Shown: positions 1,569-46,896, counted from the first letter of the stretch. The stretch: DNA of 64,000 nucleotides from Vampirovibrio chlorellavorus (GCA_001858525.1 LAPX01000009.1:3922-67921), one strand, 5' to 3'. Notes: a model not told the origin generated them from the letters alone. Numbers and translations are program-made.

Positions 1569-2609
1569 CTATGCCTCAGAAGATGACCCTGCGTCTTCCG
1601 GGTCTTCGTTGCTTGGCAAGGGGAAAAGCTTTCGTACCAGCGTGATTAGCAAAAAAGCCAGCAGGAACATAACTGCCAGCGAAGCGATATAAATGGGCAG
1701 GTAGTTCACATACCACACGGAAATCAGCCCACCGACCACGCACAAACTGTAAAGGTAGGTCACTGTGCGAATCTGTCCCATGCCTGCCTTTAAAAACTGA
1801 TGATGGATGTGATCGGCATCCGCCAAAAAGGGATTTTTACCCCGAAGCAGCCGCCGGAACACCGAATAGGTAATGTCCAGAATGGGGACACTCAACACGA
1901 AAATGGGCAGTAACATTACCGCTACTTTGGTTTTTAAAACCCCGGTAACGGCTATACAAGCCAGTAAAAATCCGCAAAACAAGGCCCCACTGTCACCCAT
2001 AAAAATACGGGCCGGATGAAAATTGTAAACCAGAAAGCCCAGGCTTGATCCAGCCAACAATGCTGCCAACAAAGCGGAGGAGGGCTGGTTGGTGAATAAA
2101 GCCACCACCGTCAGCGTTAAGGCTGATAACGTGGTGACTCCAGCGGCAAGCCCGTCGATACCATCAATAAAATTCATGGCGTTCATCAGGCCCACCAGCC
2201 AAATCACGGTCACCGGCAAACTGAGAGCATTGAGGACCAACAGTTGCGCGCCCGGTAAATCCAGATTGTTGATTTGAATCCCCAAAAAGAATGCGGTCAG
2301 AGCGGCAATGAACTGAATGGCCAGCTTCAGGTAAGGCGATAGATTGAAAAGATCATCCAGCAGCCCCAATAAAAAAACGATGGTACCCCCCGCCAGAATA
2401 CCGAGCAATGCGTTGTGCAGCTCCGGTCTCCAGCCCAGCATAACAATGGCCCCCAGAGACAACATAAAAGCTAGCCAGATGGCAATGCCGCCCAGTCGCG
2501 GGATTGGGTACTTGTGAATCTTTCTGGCCCCGGGCGCATCGTAGTAACCGGCCGAAATGGCCTGCTTCCGCACAATCGGAACCAGAATGAAGCTGACCAT
2601 TAAGGCCAC
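1569..2609 (-). CDS. Undecaprenyl-phosphate sugar-1-phosphate transferase, MraY/WecA (GT4 polyprenyl-P transferase) family
   Basis: Multi-TM protein with 'DD..N' and 'NAMNFIDGIDGLA' motifs typical of WecA/TagO/MraY. Confidence 0.8.
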   Translation of the reverse strand: MALMVSFILVPIVRKQAISAGYYDAPGARKIHKYPIPRLGGIAIWLAFMLSLGAIVMLGWRPELHNALLGILAGGTIVFLLGLLDDLFNLSPYLKLAIQFIAALTAFFLGIQINNLDLPGAQLLVLNALSLPVTVIWLVGLMNAMNFIDGIDGLAAGVTTLSALTLTVVALFTNQPSSALLAALLAGSSLGFLVYNFHPARIFMGDSGALFCGFLLACIAVTGVLKTKVAVMLLPIFVLSVPILDITYSVFRRLLRGKNPFLADADHIHHQFLKAGMGQIRTVTYLYSLCVVGGLISVWYVNYLPIYIASLAVMFLLAFLLITLVRKLFPLPSNEDPEDAGSSSEA

Positions 2610-13049: not shown

Positions 13050-15749
13050 ATGATTGATATGGATAAGCTGACCACTCAGGCCCAGGATGCTTTTGTTGAT
13101 GCCCAAACCATTTTAAAGCGCTTTGAGCAAAACCAGCTGGATGCCGAGCACTTGCTGTTGGCTATGCTTGAAAATGATAAAGGGCTGGTGGCCCGTATTT
13201 TTCAACAACTGAACGTAGAAAAGCGTGATTTGAAGCTGGATTTGGAAGCGGCCTTGGCCAAACGCCCCAGAGCCACCATTCACTCTCTGGAATCCGGGCA
13301 GGTGTTCATCACTCCCCGGCTTAAAAAATTGCTGGATGAGGCCAATGGCGAAGCTGAGCGGTTGAAAGATTCTTATGTGAGTACCGAGCATATTTTGCTG
13401 GCTATGGTGGAAACCGGCGGGGAAGTCAGCGATCTGTTGCGCAAGCTGAATATCACCAAAAACAATATTTACGCCGTCCTCAAGCAAATTCGGGGTGGTC
13501 GCAAGGCGGATTCTCAAAACGCGGAAGGCAACTATCAGGCCTTGGAAAAATACGGAAAAGATCTGACTGAGGTGGCCCGCACCGGCAAGCTGGACCCGGT
13601 CATTGGCAGACAAGAAGAGATTCGGCGGGTGATTCAGGTCCTCAGCCGTCGCACCAAGAACAACCCGGTGCTGATTGGGGAACCCGGCGTGGGTAAAACC
13701 GCCATTGTGGAAGGCTTGGCCCTGCGCATCATCAACGGGGATGTGCCAGAGAGCCTGAAAAACCGTAAACTGATTTCTCTGGATATGGGTGCTTTAATTG
13801 CCGGGGCCAAATTTCGGGGCGAGTTTGAGGAGCGCTTGAAATCCGTCTTGAAAGAGGTTCAATCGGCGGAAGGCGATATCATCCTGTTCATCGATGAATT
13901 GCACACCGTAGTGGGCGCTGGGGCCACCGATGGGGCCATGGATGCCAGTAACCTGTTAAAGCCCATGCTGGCCCGTGGGGAACTGCATTGCATTGGCGCC
14001 ACCACCATCAACGAGTACCGCAAGTACATTGAGAAAGATGCTGCTCTGGAACGTCGTTTTCAGCCGGTCATGGTGGATGAACCCACCGTGGAAGACACCA
14101 TCAGCATTTTGCGAGGGCTGAAGGAGCGTTATGAGGTGCATCACGGGGTGCGTATCAAGGATTCCGCCATTATCGCCGCGGCCACCTTATCCCACCGCTA
14201 CATCAGCGATCGATTCCTGCCGGACAAGGCCATTGATTTGATCGATGAGGCTTCTTCTAAAATTCGCATGGAAATTGACAGCCTGCCTCAGGAGCTGGAC
14301 GAGATTTCCCGGAATCTCATGCAACTGGAAATTGAGGCCGAAGCACTGAAGAAGGAGCAGGACAGTGCATCTCAGGACCGTTTGAAACGGCTGGAGCAGG
14401 AAATCGCCACGCTACGGCAACAAAAGGAAAGCTTTGAAGCGGCCTGGAAAGCGGAAAAAAATGACATTCAGGCAGTTCAGCGCATTAAAGAGGCCATGGA
14501 GCAGACCCGGGTAGAAATCGATCGGGCTGAGCGGGAAACCGATTTGGCCAAGGCCGCTGAACTGAAATATGGCCGCCTGCGGGAACTGCAAACCCAGCTG
14601 GAAGCCGAAGAACGCAAACTGAATGCTGGGGTAAAAGCCGATGGCAAACCCCTGCTGAAAGAAGAAATCGACGAAGAGGACATTGCCGAGGTCATCAGCC
14701 GCTGGACGGGCATTCCGGTATCCAAGCTGATGGAAGGCGAAGTGGAAAAGCTGCTGAAAATGGAAGACTTTTTGCACAAGCGCATTGTGGGCCAAAATCT
14801 GGCGGTGCAGGTGGTCTCCGAAGCGGTGCGACGAGCTCGGGCGGGCTTGAAGGATGAAAACCGTCCCATTGGGGCCTTTCTGTTCCTGGGACCTACCGGG
14901 GTGGGCAAAACGGAGCTGACCAAGGCGCTGGCCGAGTATCTGTTCAACGATGACAACGCCGTGGTGCGCATTGATATGAGCGAGTACATGGAAAAGCACG
15001 CCGTGGCCCGGCTGATTGGGGCCCCTCCCGGTTATGTGGGCTACGATGAAGGCGGCCAGCTGACTGAAGCGGTGCGCCGCAAGCCCTATTCCGTGGTGCT
15101 GTTTGATGAAGTGGAAAAAGCCCACCCGGATGTCTTTAACGTGCTACTGCAAGTGATGGACGATGGCCGCCTGACTGACAGCAAGGGCCGCACCGTGGAT
15201 TTCCGCAACACGGTCATTATTCTGACCAGTAACATTGGCAGCCCCATTATTCTGGAAGCCCGCCTGAAGGGTACCATGGGTCAGGCTGGGGGGCAGGCTG
15301 GCAGTGATGAGGCCATGCGCGAGCGGGTCATGGAGGAAGTGCGGGCCAGTTTCCGCCCGGAATTCATCAATCGCCTGGATGACATTGTGTTCTTTGAAGC
15401 GTTGAAGCCCGAAGACCTGCGGCGCATTGTGGATATTCAGCTGAGTCGTTTGCACAAGCTGCTGGCGGGCCGTAATATCGCCATTGATCTGAGTGAAGAG
15501 GCTAAAGATTATCTGGGCCAGCTAGGCTACGACCCCATTTACGGGGCTCGCCCGTTGAAGCGGGTCATTCGCAAGTACCTGGAAAACCCCTTGGCCAATC
15601 AGTTGCTGGAAGGGCGTTTCAAGGACGGGGACTTTGTCTTTGCCGAGGTGGATCCGGTGAATGACAAGTTGTTATTCAGCCTGAAACCGGCCCCAGTGCA
15701 AGCCAGTCATAAAACCACAGAAACCGTAGCGGGGAGCCAGCGCCCATGA
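13050..15749 (+). CDS. clpB: ATP-dependent chaperone ClpB
   Basis: Clp_N repeats, two AAA+ modules ([16 protein letters not shown]) and a long middle coiled coil; 899 aa. Confidence 0.95.
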
Positions 15750-39882: not shown

Positions 39883-40515
39883 TTAGTTGTTCCATGAGAA
39901 CCAGCTCGGAAGCTGAGCCGGGTCGGCACCATAGCACCAAGGGCCGCCCCCTGCCCATTTCTGACAAGCGTTAAGGCCTGCATCACCTCGGGATGCAATG
40001 CGACCGTTATAAAACAACCAAAATTCCAGTCCTTTACCTGGGCCGTTTGTAGTGCCATCGGTGATTCTTCCATCCGGGTCAATATGGAAGTAAACCGCCC
40101 CCGTATTTGTGAGGCTCCCAAATGTGGACGGCAGGCCATAATCGACCAGGGCACCATTATGCAAACGCATGCACACCCACACATTCCCATCACAGGTCAA
40201 AGTTCCCTGCCCGTGGACACTATCAAACGTCGTGCCGGTTTCAATACGAGAGTAATTCAAATAAGGCGTCAGATCTTTGATACCGAAGGTGTCTGTGACG
40301 GTATTGCTGGCTTTGTAATTCTGATAGGCCGCGGCAACGCTGCCTACAAACTCTTTGGCAATGGCGTTGTATCGTTGATTTTGCTGGGATGAAATCAGTT
40401 TTGGGATGGTAAAAGTGGCAATTTCACCCAATATCAACAAACTGATCAGGAGTTCGGCCAAACTAAAAGCCGAGAGCTTCTGCCCCCAAACTGGGGCATT
40501 GCTGGGCAGGTTCAT
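39883..40515 (-). CDS. Type IV prepilin-like protein (class III signal; pilin or pseudopilin paralog 1)
   Basis: 'AFSLAELLISLLILGEIATFTIPK' N-methylation/cleavage-type motif with Glu at +5, Cys pairs in the C-terminal half, and an ending 'PSWFSWNN'. Confidence 0.65.
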   Translation of the reverse strand: MNLPSNAPVWGQKLSAFSLAELLISLLILGEIATFTIPKLISSQQNQRYNAIAKEFVGSVAAAYQNYKASNTVTDTFGIKDLTPYLNYSRIETGTTFDSVHGQGTLTCDGNVWVCMRLHNGALVDYGLPSTFGSLTNTGAVYFHIDPDGRITDGTTNGPGKGLEFWLFYNGRIASRGDAGLNACQKWAGGGPWCYGADPAQLPSWFSWNN

Positions 40516-40632: not shown

Positions 40633-41151
40633 TTACTGATCTGACTCGATTTCCCCTTCAAATTTGAAGTCAGATGCTTTTAAATTGGATAAGAAATTTT
40701 TAAATGCTTCTGCCTCGGCCTCATCCCGTTCCTGATCGGTGGAAATGGTGCCTTCGGCCATGACGTTGGCGGTGGCAAAAATCTGCACTTTCGCTTTCAA
40801 GGCCAAGGCAATGGCATCCGATGGCCGAGCGTCAATAATGTGCTGCGTCCCATCAGGATGGTTCAGGTAGATACTGGCAAAATAAGTGTCAGAGTTGATG
40901 TCGTTGATTTCAATTTTGGTAATGCTGTAGCCCAGGGTTTCTACAATATTCCCCAGCAAGTCATGGGTCATGGGCCTAGCCGATTTGATATCTTCCAACT
41001 GCCGAATGATGGCACTGGCTTCCGCTGTACCAATCCAGATGGGCAAGGCGCGACGGTTTTCCTGATCATTTAACACCACAATGGGTGTCCCCGTGCGAGT
41101 ATCCAATGCAATACCCATCACATACAATTCTACTAGTGGTAAACTCTCCAA
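40633..41151 (-). CDS. Bifunctional nuclease family protein (BFN/DUF151)
   Basis: 'VVL.D...R.LPIWIG..EA.AI.......RP.THDL' matches the BFN family; acidic C-terminal tail. Confidence 0.7.
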   Translation of the reverse strand: MESLPLVELYVMGIALDTRTGTPIVVLNDQENRRALPIWIGTAEASAIIRQLEDIKSARPMTHDLLGNIVETLGYSITKIEINDINSDTYFASIYLNHPDGTQHIIDARPSDAIALALKAKVQIFATANVMAEGTISTDQERDEAEAEAFKNFLSNLKASDFKFEGEIESDQ

Positions 41152-41248: not shown

Positions 41249-42373
41249 CTATTTGCCCACCTGGTAGGGGGCTGGTGGCAATGAACCTACTCGATTCAGC
41301 GGCCAAATCCGGAAAACAGCCCGGCCAATGACCCGTTCATCCCGTGCAAATCCCCAATAGCGACTATCCAGACTCTGATTTCGATTATCCCCCATCATGT
41401 AGTACTGACCTGCGGGGATTTTAATGGGACCACAATAAGGCTCCGGTTTAACCAGTGTACAGGTGGCTCCAATTTCATTGACATAGGGCTCATCCAGCTT
41501 TTTGCCGTTCACCCAGACACCTTCTCCAGGGATCACTTCCACCGTATCGCCGGGCAGTCCAACCAGGCGCTTGATGTAAGCCACATCAATGTAGTCATCT
41601 TTTTTGTAAAGCAGGCCCGAAAAACCAGTCCATCGCAGAAACAGGCTGACCGGATCTTTCTTCAGTTGACTCATGGGGGGATAAAAAACCAGAATATCGC
41701 CTCGCTGGTATGGACGCTTCCATCGGGTGACCCGCTCAATCACCAGGCGGTCATTGACTTGTAAGCCAGGCAACATGGATTCGGATGGAATGAGTCGAAG
41801 TTCGCCAATAAAACTTTTAATCACAATCAGGAAAAACAGGACAAAAGCCACCACTTCCATAAGCTCTTTGGCCAGAAACAATGCGGTGTTGCGACCCTGT
41901 TTCTGCCGAACCCGGATCAGGCTGTTGTCGATTTTCTCTGGGGAAATTTGAAATTTTTGGGTGGCCTGCACGAGGACTGGATCGCTGGAAAGGCAAAATG
42001 CTTTCAGCAAATGCTCTACATCCACCAGCACGTTTTTGGTGCCGGTAATCGCGGCATAACTTTTTGCCAGAGACTCGGCAGAGGCCAGCAGACTTTCGTT
42101 TTGGGCAGGAGAAGAGCCTGCAGCGGATTGCTTCAATACTTTGCCAAGTCCGCCGGGTGAAGCGTGCAATTCTTTCAGTAAGCTGTCCAGCCGATTGAAC
42201 GGACGATGGGTCATTAACAGGGCCTGAAAATAAAGGCGCTCGGTGGGCTTGGACAGTCCTGCTTTTTTGGCCAACTTGCTTGCCAGATGGATGGCGTCTT
42301 TCACGTCTTCGGAATAACGAACGGTTTCCAAGTAAAAATCCTCGTGAGGCCCAAAAAACAAGCTGCCACTCAA
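41249..42373 (-). CDS. lepB: Signal peptidase I (S26) fused in-frame to an N-terminal double Clp_N (Clp R) domain
   Basis: C-terminal half: TM segment, 'SESMLP' (SxSMxP) and 'GDNRNQSLDSRYWG'. N-terminal 180 aa: two Clp_N-like repeats ('VDVEHLLKAF...') alignable to the ClpB N-domain in this window. There is no stop codon between them. Confidence 0.65.
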   Translation of the reverse strand: MSGSLFFGPHEDFYLETVRYSEDVKDAIHLASKLAKKAGLSKPTERLYFQALLMTHRPFNRLDSLLKELHASPGGLGKVLKQSAAGSSPAQNESLLASAESLAKSYAAITGTKNVLVDVEHLLKAFCLSSDPVLVQATQKFQISPEKIDNSLIRVRQKQGRNTALFLAKELMEVVAFVLFFLIVIKSFIGELRLIPSESMLPGLQVNDRLVIERVTRWKRPYQRGDILVFYPPMSQLKKDPVSLFLRWTGFSGLLYKKDDYIDVAYIKRLVGLPGDTVEVIPGEGVWVNGKKLDEPYVNEIGATCTLVKPEPYCGPIKIPAGQYYMMGDNRNQSLDSRYWGFARDERVIGRAVFRIWPLNRVGSLPPAPYQVGK

Positions 42374-42400: not shown

Positions 42401-43924
42401 TCAGTCTGTTGAAATCTCAATGCAATTTCCATCCCGACGACGCGCGGCACTCAGGGCATTTTCCGTAGCCCGAATGAGGGAGGACACCGAGGTATGTCTT
42501 TCGCTTAAAGGCACAACCCCGGCACAGACAGTCAGACTCAAGGTAGTGTCTTGCCACACCATGGATGATTTTTCCACGCGATCCCGAAACCGTTCCAATG
42601 CTACAAACGCTTGCTCTCTGGCGGTTTGTGGCAATAAAACAGCCAGACTTTTACTGCTGTAACGGGCCAGGAAATCAATGCCCCGGAAACTTTCTTCCAG
42701 AATGTGGGAGATATGTTGCAAGGCCTGATCGCCACAAGCATGGCCCCATTCTTCATTCAATTCCCGGAATCGATCCAGACCGTTCATGGCCAAGGCCAAA
42801 TTCTGCTCGTAGCGTTTGGCCGATTTAAACTCTCGTTGCAAGACAGTCATAAAGTGCTTGTGGTTGAACAAGCCGGTCAAACTGTCGGTAATGGCCCACA
42901 TTTGTGCCTGAGAGTACAAATGGCGCAGCTTCATCAACAGGCGTATCTCGTCTTCCACCAGGTGCACGGGGAAAATTTTAGCGTAATCCACCTTTTGCTT
43001 GGCGAAAAAGGCCACTGACCCAATCAGGCCCGCATCCAGATGAAAATCTTTGACATAAACCGTTTCATAATCGGTGGGGGGGGCTTCCTCGTCCAGTTGT
43101 CCGATCACCTGCGATTCCTGCAGTTCCAACTGGGCATCGGTCAAGCCGCGTGCTTTAAAGCGTTCAAAAAAACTTTCCATCAGTTGCTCTATATGAGTAC
43201 TCGGTTGCTTTTCCCCTTCCGGCAAGTGAAATGTCAGAATGCGTGGCCCTTTGTCGGTATCGTTGTAGAAAATGGCCGCCGCATCGTATTCCAAAATACT
43301 TTCCAGCAAGCTGAAAAACATGTAGTTCATCAAATCGGTGTCATGTACCAAATCAGACAAACTACGGAATTCCACCATCAACATGGATTCCACCAAGGAG
43401 GTGTCCAGTATCTGATTCAGGCGGGTGCGGATATTGAATGGATTCTGAGCGTTGTTGGCCTTCAGCAGCAACTTTTCCTGGATATTCATGCGGTCATAAA
43501 TTTCCAGTACCATCTGGGTTTTTTGCAGCAGTTTGGCTTCGACTTCGTCTTTGCCTAAAAAGTCATCGGCTCCGGCCTTCATTCCCCAGAAACGATCCAT
43601 CTTCAGTGCCTGCTCGGCAATTAGCAGGGTGGGGATCTTGCGCATGACCGGATCATTTTTGACCAGTCGGCAAATCTGATAACCATTTAATTCCGGGGTG
43701 GCGCTCCCGGCCAAAATCATGTCCGGAATGAGTCGATAGACTTTCTGGATGCCTTCAGTGCCATCCAGGGCGTAATCGATATCATAACCGTGCTTTTCCA
43801 GCGCCAGACGACAGGCATTGACCACCAATTCGTCCTGATGAATCACCAGAACCAGCGCTTTACCTTGTTGCGCGGGCTGATTTAACTGCTCTGGATTAGT
43901 ATTACTCTCTGAAAACACGTTCAC
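42401..43924 (-). CDS. Response-regulator receiver (REC) domain protein with a degenerate, probably inactive GGDEF domain
   Basis: REC 'LVLVIHQDE...' N-terminus. The GGDEF-domain core 'DSLTGLFNHKHF...' is present, but the signature reads 'RYSSKSLAVLLP' instead of RxGGEEF. Confidence 0.7.
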   Translation of the reverse strand: MNVFSESNTNPEQLNQPAQQGKALVLVIHQDELVVNACRLALEKHGYDIDYALDGTEGIQKVYRLIPDMILAGSATPELNGYQICRLVKNDPVMRKIPTLLIAEQALKMDRFWGMKAGADDFLGKDEVEAKLLQKTQMVLEIYDRMNIQEKLLLKANNAQNPFNIRTRLNQILDTSLVESMLMVEFRSLSDLVHDTDLMNYMFFSLLESILEYDAAAIFYNDTDKGPRILTFHLPEGEKQPSTHIEQLMESFFERFKARGLTDAQLELQESQVIGQLDEEAPPTDYETVYVKDFHLDAGLIGSVAFFAKQKVDYAKIFPVHLVEDEIRLLMKLRHLYSQAQMWAITDSLTGLFNHKHFMTVLQREFKSAKRYEQNLALAMNGLDRFRELNEEWGHACGDQALQHISHILEESFRGIDFLARYSSKSLAVLLPQTAREQAFVALERFRDRVEKSSMVWQDTTLSLTVCAGVVPLSERHTSVSSLIRATENALSAARRRDGNCIEISTD

Positions 43925-44226: not shown

Positions 44227-46896
44227 ATGGACAGCTTGGACACCCAGCCATTTGAAGAGTACCCGGTGTATGATTCCATACAAGGGCTAGTTTCCGTGGG
44301 GGAGCCTGAGGACGGGTTGAGTCCATTTGCCTCAGGAGCGCCGTCGGCACGACAGGCACCCGTTTCTAAAGCCCGTAATCTGTATGATCAAGGGGTGCTG
44401 TCTAATTTCAAAAAGAATACTGATGAGGCTTTGTCCTGTCTGGAACAAGCCTATGGTCTCTTTTTACAGGAACATCATTACCTGGGGGCCATTGAGTGTC
44501 TGGTGGAGCTGGCTTGGCTGAAGTATAACAGTGGTTCCTCGGATGCTGTGCATAAATCGGCCCGGCTCTTCTCGGAAGCCCTTAAGATGATCAACGTGCA
44601 CATGCACGAGGTCGGCATAAACGAGGTTCGGGCCCGCTTGCTTCACTATCAGGGGTTGGTCAAGTATCGGGAAAAGCGTTTTGGCGAGGCGGTCAAGCAT
44701 TTTATGTACGCCCGCACCTTCTGTCACCCGGATGGCATGGAGTCTGCCCGCATTCTGGATAGTCTAGCCGTTCATTATGAGCATACCAACGATTACTACC
44801 GGGCCATTCAGTGCCTGCAAAAGGCTTTGGAAATAAAGCAACAAGCGGGTTGCGAGTCTGAGCAGGCTGTCAGTTGCCAAATCATTGGTCGGATTTACAT
44901 CCTGCGGGAAGAGTATCCGCAGGCGGAACGATTTTTGAATCAGGCCCTGCAAATTTCAGTGACGCTTCAGGATGCTTATCGTTGCGCTCGGATTAAAAAC
45001 GATTTGGTCAGACTGAGCATTTATCAGGGGCATTTTGAACAAGCGCAAGGCTTGATTGCCCAGCTGGAAGCTGAATGTACGGACAAGCACATGCGAATTC
45101 CCTTTGGGAAGAGCCAGTTTTACAAGGCCTACATTTATTACAGCCAGCTTCGCTTTGGAGAGTCTCAACAATTACTGGAAACCGAGGTGCTGCCCATTTT
45201 TAAACGGCAGCGCTACCGCAAGGGCTTTGCTATGGCCAGCCGGTTATTGGCTTGTTTGCACTATCAGGGTGGGCAAGGGGCTCGTGCCATCGAAGAAATG
45301 AGTGAAGTGATCGCCATCTTTAAAGAAGAGGGTAGTATCACGGAACTGGCCAAGACTTACTTCGAGCTGGGCAAGATTTATTTGTCTTTAAATGAGCCCA
45401 AGCTGGCCTTGGCCAGTATGCTGGAGTCTCTGCGCATTGCCGAAAGCAACGGGCTCAGCTTTATTATCAGCCACATTGAAGATGAAATTTTCCGGCTGGA
45501 TGAGCGGAAATGGCAGGAAATTGTCGAGAAGCGGGCCAATCACGACCGGGTTTTTGAAAAAGATCTCAACCTGATGGATGCCCTGGAGGCTTTGTCAGAG
45601 CAACCGGAACAACCGGCGCAAAACCAGAGCCAAAATCCCAACCAACGGCTGGTTTCGCTGTTGCGGGTTGGGCAGGCCATGTCCGCCGAACGGGATTTGG
45701 AAAAGCTGCTGACCTTGATTAAAAGTGAAACCGAGCAGGCCCTGGATGCGGAGCGCTGTACGGTATTTTTGTACGATCGGGATAATAATGAGCTTTGGTC
45801 TAAAGTGGCTACCGGCCTGGAAACCAGCGAGGAAATCCGTTTTCCGGCCCATTTGGGATTGGCAGGCTATGTGGTCAAAACCGGAGAAGTCCTGAACATC
45901 AAGGATGCCTATGACGATCCCCGGTTTAACCAGGATATCGATAAAAAAACCGGGTATCGCACCCGAAATATTTTGTGTTTGCCCATGCGCAACCGCAAGA
46001 TGGAGATCATTGGGGTTTTTCAGGTTCTGAATAAAAGGGTTTCCCACTTTGATAAGGTGGATGAAGACCTGCTAACGGCTATTTCGACCAATGCCGGGGT
46101 GGCCCTGGAAAACGCCACACTAGCCAAAGAGATGAAAATCTCCTTTGACAGTTTTGTTAAAACGCTCTCCAGCACCATTGACGCCCGAGATCCCATCACG
46201 GCGGGTCATTCCGAGCGGGTGGCCGAGTACTCTGTACTGCTGGGCGAAGAAATGGAAATGCAGCAAGATGAGTTAGAGGCACTCAAGTACGCTTCGCTGC
46301 TGCATGACATCGGCAAAATTGGCATTCAGGAGGATATTCTGAAAAAAGACGGGCGCTTGACCGAGAAAGAGTACCGTCACATCCAGAAGCATGTGTACTA
46401 TACCCACGAGATCCTGAAAAACGTTCACTTTGAGCGCCATTTGCAACTGGTGCCAGAGATCGCCGCCTCTCATCATGAGAAAATGGATGGCAGTGGCTAT
46501 CACCGGGGCCTGCAGGGGCAGGAAATTTTATTGTCCGGGCGGATTTTGGCCATTTCCGATGTCTTTGACGCCATTACTTCCCGCCGGCATTACCGGAACC
46601 GGATGGCCTTCGACAAGGTGCTGACCATTATGAAACGGGATGCCGGAACCCACTTTGATCCAGAGTGTGTGGATGCCTTTTTTAATATCCCCTTGTCCCG
46701 ATTGGGTGTGGTCTTGCTCATGGATCGGGGGAACGGGGTGGATGAGGAGGGCATGATTCTGGTGGATCAGCTGGACTCTGTTATCACCGTCGGAGAGTAT
46801 TACAAATGCCTGAACAAAGAGGCCATGAGTAAAGGGGAAGCGGATGTGCATCGGGTTTTTAGCAACTTGTACCACTTCACCGGAAAAATAGACTAA
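44227..46896 (+). CDS. TPR-repeat, GAF and HD-GYP domain protein (c-di-GMP phosphodiesterase-like; GYP motif reads GYH)
   Basis: TPR-like helical N-terminal half, a central GAF domain, and a C-terminal 'HDIGKIGI...HHEKMDGSGYHRGL' HD-GYP domain. Confidence 0.8.
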   Translation: MDSLDTQPFEEYPVYDSIQGLVSVGEPEDGLSPFASGAPSARQAPVSKARNLYDQGVLSNFKKNTDEALSCLEQAYGLFLQEHHYLGAIECLVELAWLKYNSGSSDAVHKSARLFSEALKMINVHMHEVGINEVRARLLHYQGLVKYREKRFGEAVKHFMYARTFCHPDGMESARILDSLAVHYEHTNDYYRAIQCLQKALEIKQQAGCESEQAVSCQIIGRIYILREEYPQAERFLNQALQISVTLQDAYRCARIKNDLVRLSIYQGHFEQAQGLIAQLEAECTDKHMRIPFGKSQFYKAYIYYSQLRFGESQQLLETEVLPIFKRQRYRKGFAMASRLLACLHYQGGQGARAIEEMSEVIAIFKEEGSITELAKTYFELGKIYLSLNEPKLALASMLESLRIAESNGLSFIISHIEDEIFRLDERKWQEIVEKRANHDRVFEKDLNLMDALEALSEQPEQPAQNQSQNPNQRLVSLLRVGQAMSAERDLEKLLTLIKSETEQALDAERCTVFLYDRDNNELWSKVATGLETSEEIRFPAHLGLAGYVVKTGEVLNIKDAYDDPRFNQDIDKKTGYRTRNILCLPMRNRKMEIIGVFQVLNKRVSHFDKVDEDLLTAISTNAGVALENATLAKEMKISFDSFVKTLSSTIDARDPITAGHSERVAEYSVLLGEEMEMQQDELEALKYASLLHDIGKIGIQEDILKKDGRLTEKEYRHIQKHVYYTHEILKNVHFERHLQLVPEIAASHHEKMDGSGYHRGLQGQEILLSGRILAISDVFDAITSRRHYRNRMAFDKVLTIMKRDAGTHFDPECVDAFFNIPLSRLGVVLLMDRGNGVDEEGMILVDQLDSVITVGEYYKCLNKEAMSKGEADVHRVFSNLYHFTGKID

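Follow-up and report, generated by a model that had tools for sequence, protein, structure and literature searches.

Type I signal peptidase is essential, has been studied extensively and serves as a target for antibiotics. Besides E. coli LepB and S. aureus SpsB, the S26A members include B. subtilis SipS and the cyanobacterial enzymes LepB1 and LepB2, and the Gram-positive enzymes have a single N-terminal anchor. To our knowledge, the accepted view is that signal peptidase I works solely at the outer face of the membrane and receives no cytoplasmic input. In the known enzymes the N-terminus reaches only a short way into the cytoplasm, except that LepB has a second transmembrane helix with a small loop, and we know of none with a folded cytoplasmic domain of ~145 residues. 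Here we describe a signal peptidase gene, lepB, from Vampirovibrio chlorellavorus whose product is predicted to carry such a domain. The gene lies on the minus strand of a stretch of 64,000 nucleotides (nt) (GCA_001858525.1, LAPX01000009.1:3922-67921), referred to below as the window. It joins a double Clp_N domain, a single transmembrane helix and signal peptidase I. Vampirovibrionales is a predatory order of non-photosynthetic relatives of cyanobacteria.

Clp_N domains occur both in the Hsp100/Clp proteins and outside them, the plastid proteins ClpT1 and ClpT2 being stand-alone Clp_N proteins. The N-domain of Hsp100 proteins is non-catalytic. Adaptors and cyclic peptide antibiotics bind to it, as do phospho-arginine (pArg), which occupies two pockets, and unfolded substrates, for which there is a hydrophobic groove (PMC12583610). 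In the mycobacterial ClpC2 repressor a Clp_N-like domain attached to a non-AAA+ partner serves as a switch that responds to pArg and to antibiotics (PMC13345244). Clp_N repeats are also fused to vWA domains in conflict systems (PMC7159879).

The Clp_N–signal peptidase fusion

A preliminary description of the locus, made from the DNA sequence alone, had read two Clp_N repeats upstream of the S26 peptidase. This identification of the ~147 residues was borne out by profile, predicted fold and fold search. The N-domains of 56 orthologs were aligned (alignment A1). Pfam Clp_N was matched by 32/56 of these domains (E<=0.01, best E 1.5e-9), and no other Pfam family recurred among the 56. When the A1 profile was searched against all PDB sequences with hmmsearch, 48 of the 49 matches were Clp/Hsp100 N-domains (best E 1.5e-10). 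These belong to ClpB, ClpC, ClpC1, ClpC2, Hsp104 and HSP101, and several of the alignments cover both repeats. AlphaFold2 (AF2) with A1 predicted eight helices arranged as 4+4, with a mean predicted local distance difference test (pLDDT) score of 94.5. Each of the 50 best-ranked Foldseek matches in the PDB is either the N-domain of a Clp/Hsp100 protein or an Hsp100 chain (TM-score 0.52-0.71, 134-151 columns, 13-21% sequence identity). Because profile, AF2 fold and fold search agree, the assignment is secure at the family level, and the N-terminal region is a genuine double-repeat Clp_N domain. Repeat 1 bears a family-specific loop motif, R43-x-F45-x-R47-x-D49, and repeat 2 bears V-E-H-L-L-K-A.

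The window also encodes a ClpB (13050..15749, ClpB type confirmed), and the repeats had been said to align with it. This holds for the family but not for the single pair of proteins. With hhalign, A1 aligned to residues 1-157 of the window ClpB over 132 columns (E 6e-5), with each of the two repeats in register with its ClpB counterpart. A local hidden Markov model of A1 also matched this ClpB (E 1.1e-5). Pairwise BLASTP of the N-domain against the ClpB N-domain was non-significant (E 0.07, 33 residues) and paired repeat 2 with ClpB repeat 1; it was discarded as a test because the domains share <20% identity. Word-index homolog searches with the N-terminal part or the N-domain alignment returned essentially nothing despite full-length orthologs up to 87% identical, which for a short, divergent helical domain is a limit of the index and not evidence.

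The peptidase and its N-terminal region share a single uninterrupted open reading frame (ORF), 41249..42373, which encodes 374 amino acids (aa) counted from the first possible TTG. As had been noted, the S26 motifs are preceded in frame, without a stop, by the N-terminal region. The continuous frame of the preliminary description therefore stands, but its start at 42373 does not. Sequence comparison points to the conserved TTG at 42331, 42 nt further in, as the most likely start of translation. The string ACGAGGATTTTTAC-TTG, which contains the Shine-Dalgarno-like GAGGA, is identical across three related contigs (L081, L082 and L083). The 14 codons upstream of it have an in-frame TAG in V. chlorellavorus (L083) and no in-frame start in L081 and L082. 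Ortholog N-termini read M-E/D-x-V-R-Y-S-E-D, matching the position of the window's TTG. The same TTG was chosen by gene callers on L081 and L083 in two independent calls, and the exact 360-aa product is found in an NCBI-derived protein collection. Since the start is conserved, the GAGGA is kept, the upstream codons are not conserved and the gene calls agree with the 360-aa record, 41249..42331 was taken as the gene, and residues are numbered in the 360-aa form throughout. The segment 42332..42373 is probably a 5' untranslated leader. The preliminary description had allowed for a conserved internal start of the peptidase. No conserved internal Met precedes the transmembrane helix in the relatives compared, and an internal alternative start was rejected for this reason. 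Between the stop codon of the upstream gene and lepB there are 27 nt if the first possible TTG is counted as the start, and 69 nt for the conserved TTG.

By every feature that can be checked by sequence (MEROPS S26A, PF10502, TIGR02227), the C-terminal part is a type I signal peptidase. The window protein matches PF10502 (Peptidase_S26) with E 1.5e-39 (136.1 bits, cut-off 22.9) and TIGR02227 with E 1.5e-40 (138.8 bits, cut-off 47). It carries the S26 motifs IPSESM (Ser185), YIKR (Lys254) and GDNRNQSLDSRYWG. In box E (G-D-N-R-x-x-S-x-D-S-R), G314, D315, N316, R317, S320, D322 and R324 are invariant among 53 full-length orthologs. Ser185 and Lys254 align with the solved signal peptidase I 4nv4. 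Sequence matches of the catalytic part in the PDB are Gram-positive signal peptidases (S. aureus SpsB, 4me8 and others) and E. coli LepB, and its Foldseek matches include E. coli LepB as well. The gene product is predicted to be an active type I signal peptidase with the Ser185/Lys254 dyad outside the cytoplasmic membrane. There is no second S26 gene within the window.

Residues 149-182 are the sole hydrophobic segment (Kyte-Doolittle mean at least 1.6 in 19-residue windows starting at 149-164). Averaged over 53 sequences, the 15 residues that precede the transmembrane helix have a net charge of +2.4, and the 15 that follow it have one of -1. The count of hydrophobic segments and the positive-inside charge bias place the N-terminal Clp_N domain in the cytoplasm, with a predicted N-in/C-out orientation. 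In the full-length AF2 model (pLDDT 83), helix 131-143 is directly followed by a continuous helix, 145-175, that contains the membrane segment. The last Clp_N helix of the model runs into the transmembrane helix, which would set the domain directly on the cytoplasmic face. We are confident that this architecture and topology are correct.

The full-length model matches LepB structures and Clp N-domain structures separately, and a Foldseek search with it found no solved PDB chain spanning both folds. A full-text literature search that included Vampirovibrio and PF02861 found no paper describing a Clp_N–signal peptidase architecture. The preliminary description had called the architecture unusual, and these results agree. 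No AAA+ module was matched in the window protein by Pfam or NCBIfam; Clp_N is followed by the transmembrane helix and Peptidase_S26. Because it is without AAA+ modules, the fusion protein is not a Clp ATPase.

The fusion is conserved in relatives, as had been proposed. A full-length search listed 120 homologs, which are 317-457 aa long and 41-87% identical, except two fragments of 220 and 252 aa. Those with names are from Vampirovibrio chlorellavorus, Vampirovibrio sp., Vampirovibrionales or bins labeled 'Melainabacteria/Cyanobacteria bacterium'. When the window protein and these homologs were aligned, 116/121 had 125-235 residues ahead of the transmembrane segment. Precomputed matches to both PF02861 and PF10502 exist for 48/120. 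The two-domain Pfam pattern is thus public in precomputed annotations and apparently unremarked; RefSeq names the V. chlorellavorus ortholog WP_303674637.1 'signal peptidase I' only.

Ratios of nonsynonymous to synonymous substitution rates (dN/dS) were obtained for the window gene against two relatives at 85-87% protein identity. They are 0.13-0.19 in the Clp_N part, 0.04-0.05 in the membrane segment and 0.016-0.039 in the catalytic domain. Clearly, the N-domain is protein-coding and under purifying selection, which is looser than that on the enzyme. The best-conserved N-domain positions include those of the family-specific loop between helix 2 and helix 3: R43 is kept in 113, F45 in 106, R47 in 90 and D49 in 113 of 116 orthologs. 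S115-x-D117-P118 is conserved at the equivalent place of repeat 2. The generic Clp_N motif of repeat 2 is also kept, with E106 in 94/116 and H107 in 104/116 orthologs.

Table 1. Coordinates of the lepB fusion, its parts and its immediate neighbors in the window
Feature	Position	Strand	Basis or remark
Response-regulator/GGDEF gene	42401..43924	minus	upstream of the lepB fusion
14 extra codons of the ORF first described	42332..42373	minus	non-conserved; from the first possible TTG
Shine-Dalgarno-like GAGGA	42339..42343	minus	7 nt upstream of the TTG start; read directly
Most likely coding sequence, Clp_N–transmembrane–signal peptidase I fusion	41249..42331	minus	360 aa + stop; TTG start 42329..42331
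Clp_N (Clp R) domain, predicted cytoplasmic, residues 1-147	41891..42331	minus	profile, model, fold search, dN/dS
Clp_N repeat 1, residues ~4-70	42122..42322	minus	helices 8-23, 31-40, 47-54, 59-70
Clp_N repeat 2, residues ~78-145	41897..42100	minus	helices 80-96, 105-113, 118-126, 131-145
Single transmembrane helix, predicted N-in/C-out, residues ~151-175	41807..41881	minus	hydrophobicity, charge bias, AF2
S26 signal peptidase I catalytic domain, predicted periplasmic, residues 179-357	41261..41797	minus	Pfam, TIGR02227, PDB sequence and Foldseek matches
Catalytic Ser185 codon (S-E-S-M)	41777..41779	minus	invariant, 53 aligned orthologs
General-base Lys254 codon (Y-I-K-R)	41570..41572	minus	invariant, 53 aligned orthologs
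Bifunctional-nuclease-domain (BFN) gene	40633..41151	minus	downstream of the lepB fusion

Distribution and gene neighborhood

To place the fusion among genomes, a scan was made with one genome per species, covering at least 80 loci, with V. chlorellavorus itself outside those 80. Among the loci listed, L001-L004 and L006 have an N-domain that the A1 profile recognizes (E 1e-12 to 5e-50). The sampled homologs of Obscuribacterales, Caenarcaniphilales, Sericytochromatia, photosynthetic Cyanobacteria and several Gastranaerophilales have short N-termini without Clp_N. An exhaustive profile search of 1.84 billion cluster representatives returned 1417 proteins at E<=1e-3. In the best 150 of these 1417, 19 join the N-domain with S26 (11 already among the listed homologs and 8 newly confirmed), and 5 resemble fragments of Clp_N–S26 fusions. 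The non-fusion matches that were inspected are generic tandem Clp_N proteins, which score through several repeats. The fold is kept across at least 19 clusters at 50% identity.

Several related loci deserve mention in their own right. In Vampirovibrionales bin132 (L005, 5020..6600, plus strand) an open reading frame of ~330 residues precedes the transmembrane segment and is strongly diverged. Its similarity to repeat 1 of the family is limited to 39 columns (hhalign probability 50%), followed further along by a Y-P-E-H-L-L-A-A-F motif; the extension looks like a degenerate, expanded Clp_N version. Two loci with the fusion are labeled as cyanobacterial metagenome-assembled genomes (MAGs), of Oculatellaceae (L001, DATNQC010000368.1) and Coleofasciculaceae (L002, DATNPJ010000040.1). 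The gene order of the window is shared by both (GGDEF, lepB, BFN, extended in L002 to xseA and FGGY), with 59-84% identity between the proteins. These contigs probably belong to Vampirovibrionales and were placed in the bins of cyanobacterial neighbors or prey. In four other loci (L012, L013, L014 and L020, of which L012 and L020 are labeled Gastranaerophilales) the S26 frame is open for ~455-466 aa. The N-terminal extension there is ~260-270 residues long, apparently with further hydrophobic segments, and no Pfam or Clp_N similarity was found in it. Signal peptidase I may have been elaborated independently, and differently, at its N-terminus in these loci, or a gene boundary may have been missed.

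A stand-alone Clp_N-like ORF of 146 aa (1840..2277, minus strand; E 4.5e-6 to the family profile) occurs in a locus labeled 'uncultured Gammaproteobacteria' (L009). It lies ~4 kb from a short lepB without the N-domain, whose product is 49% identical to the Vampirovibrio enzyme. The profile search also brought up many proteins of 300-1300 aa with 3-9 tandem canonical Clp_N units (P0122, P0126, P0130 and others); a few exceed this range, among them P0196 with 1762 aa. In five tandem Clp_N proteins inspected by eye, with no domain analysis made, no AAA+ module, membrane anchor or peptidase was noticed. These proteins may be related to the Clp_N-repeat/vWA conflict systems (PMC7159879).

The order response regulator-GGDEF, lepB, BFN is kept in fusion-bearing loci and absent elsewhere. 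The neighborhood was read as lineage synteny because the order is kept only in those loci. In the window a 210-aa ORF (39883..40515, minus strand) lies between the BFN gene and xseA. It has a prepilin-type N-terminal motif with a weak N_methyl match (E 0.05). In the close relatives L081, L082 and L083 the BFN gene is directly followed by xseA, so this ORF looks like an insertion specific to the window genome. The window lepB is near two genes with domains typical of signaling by cyclic diguanosine monophosphate, namely the response regulator-GGDEF gene and a divergent gene for a TPR-GAF-HD_5 protein (44227..46896, plus strand). TPR-GAF-HD ORFs (41-51% match) are also found just downstream of lepB in Obscuribacterales loci and in an unclassified 'bacterium' MAG (L037). 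The loci concerned (L016, L018, L022, L036, L037 and L065) are all without the Clp_N domain.

Possible roles of the Clp_N domain

The best overall explanation, which we consider probable, is an active signal peptidase I with a cytoplasmic Clp_N docking or sensing module. A single N-in anchor would be preceded by a folded Clp_N domain of ~145 residues on the cytoplasmic face. Having no catalytic role itself, the domain would dock or sense a protein, a peptide or a small ligand and in this way tether the peptidase or regulate it from the cytoplasm. This role is suggested because Clp_N does so in Hsp100/Clp proteins and in the ClpC2 repressor. The preliminary description had called the domain a substrate-recognition domain, a function that may be inferred by the same analogy. 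Possible partners would be a Sec-pathway or quality-control protein, or those portions of precursor proteins that are exposed to the cytoplasm. As a candidate contact site, the near-invariant loop R43-x-F45-x-R47-x-D49, which is specific to the family, ranks first. Whether the putative partner is a protein or a ligand, the balance tips slightly toward a binding module rather than an inert domain.

Several observations weigh against this explanation or narrow it. Taken alone, the window protein scores 12.3 bits with Pfam Clp_N (PF02861), below the cut-off of 20.7 (E 0.2), and over repeat 2 only. The Clp_N similarity first described is thus recovered by Pfam from 32 of the 56 orthologous N-domains but not from the window protein itself. 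Compared with the catalytic domain, the N-domain evolves 5-10 times faster; a looser structural role would be consistent with this rate as well. The mapping of the ClpC pArg pocket is ambiguous, with two plausible registers for repeat 1, and no functional clue was found in the gene neighbors. The taxonomic scope is limited too: among the loci sampled the fusion is, provisionally, confined to the order Vampirovibrionales.

The main rival is that the domain is an evolutionary relic or a structural cap, spacer or dimerization element without a specific ligand. Such an origin would agree with a dN/dS above that of the catalytic domain, with the variable lengths of the inter-repeat loop and with the strongly diverged and expanded version in L005, and a basic domain (median pI, the isoelectric point, 8.8) would suit simple membrane apposition. 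A domain kept only as a spacer is harder to reconcile with R43, F45 and D49, which are near-invariant at a surface loop, and with the conserved S115-x-D117-P118. Its dN/dS is also well below 1 and its fold has been retained over the 50% identity clusters counted above, and we regard this rival as unlikely, though it deserves more weight than the others. The possibility that the fusion is an artefact of annotation or assembly, either two genes or an internal peptidase start behind a chance helical look-alike of Clp_N, can be given very little credence. The Pfam score of the window protein below threshold, the non-significant pairwise BLASTP with ClpB and the TTG start codon speak for an artefact. 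The same continuous frame, however, is found in more than 100 independently assembled orthologs, without a stop and without a conserved internal Met, and the N-terminal part is under purifying selection. The upstream gene ends only 69 nt ahead of the conserved start, and the profile and fold evidence for Clp_N is strong. Because of the conservation, the selection and the lack of a conserved internal start, an artefact was excluded.

A more specific proposal is that Clp_N senses pArg, or a similar small ligand, and switches the activity or oligomeric state of the peptidase under cytoplasmic proteotoxic stress. There is a precedent in ClpC2, where Clp_N on a non-AAA+ partner works as a pArg-responsive switch (PMC13345244). 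The positions named for the ClpC pArg pocket are T7, E32 and E106 (PMC12583610). Residues aligned with the pocket are partly kept in the fusion family, namely S/T at position 7 in 101/116 orthologs together with E106 and H107 at the frequencies given above. The E-H motif and the helix-capping Ser/Thr are, however, generic Clp_N features that occur also in the window ClpB, and the window protein has Leu at the place of ClpC E32, in an alignment of uncertain register there. The window ClpB is not known to bind pArg. We know of no arginine kinase in the Vampirovibrio lineage, for which no search was made beyond this gene. A pArg sensor therefore seems improbable.

The docking or sensing explanation could be extended to a coupling of Sec-dependent export with cytoplasmic protein quality control beneath the signal peptidase. 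Clp_N would then capture unfolded or stalled precursors, or recognize a Clp adaptor or degradation mark such as a ClpS-type adaptor or phospho-arginine. This extension is speculative and rather doubtful, if slightly less so than the pArg sensor. If it were true, one protein would coordinate precursor processing with the triage of export-incompetent proteins. It would also add a previously unknown regulatory layer to a housekeeping signal peptidase and give the Clp N-domain a new job.

The fusion adds a part that looks specific to one lineage to an enzyme that is essential. That this part is conserved, folded and predicted to be cytoplasmic, and is taken from the module with which Clp/Hsp100 machines dock substrates and adaptors, suggests that the signal peptidase is regulated or tethered from the cytoplasm in one bacterial order. 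The analysis also yields a corrected start codon, a domain annotation absent from current records and three candidate positions for point mutants (R43, F45 and D49).

Comparison with known systems

The fusion resembles the type I signal peptidases of the S26A group, such as E. coli LepB and S. aureus SpsB, in its SxSM, YIKR and GDNRxxSxDSR motifs and in the predicted position of the catalytic domain outside the membrane. The single N-terminal anchor is common to the fusion and to the sampled cyanobacterial loci.

With the Hsp100/Clp proteins (ClpC, ClpB, ClpA, Hsp104 and Plasmodium HSP101) the fusion shares the two-repeat, eight-helix fold and the V-E-H-L-L-x-A-L signature. In those proteins AAA+ modules come after Clp_N, whereas the fusion has a transmembrane helix and a serine peptidase in their place. 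The loops differ as well. The R-x-F-x-R-x-D loop of the fusion replaces the R-E-G-E-G loop of ClpC and ClpB and is 2 residues longer.

Stand-alone and repeated Clp_N proteins are like the fusion in using the Clp_N fold as a mobile interaction module without AAA+ domains. The tandem proteins P0122, P0126 and P0130 differ from it in their canonical ClpC-like repeats, G-T-E-H-L-L-L-G-L. ClpC2, two structures of which (8b9o and 8ad9) were among the weak PDB matches, offers a further parallel, since there a Clp_N-type domain has been put to use for regulation or ligand sensing in a protein that is not an unfoldase. The partner of that domain is a DNA-binding repressor in a soluble oligomer with known ligands, whereas the fusion is a membrane peptidase known from sequence. 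The Vampirovibrionales protein thus adds a membrane-anchored case to the short list of Clp N-domains outside unfoldases, beside ClpC2 and ClpT.

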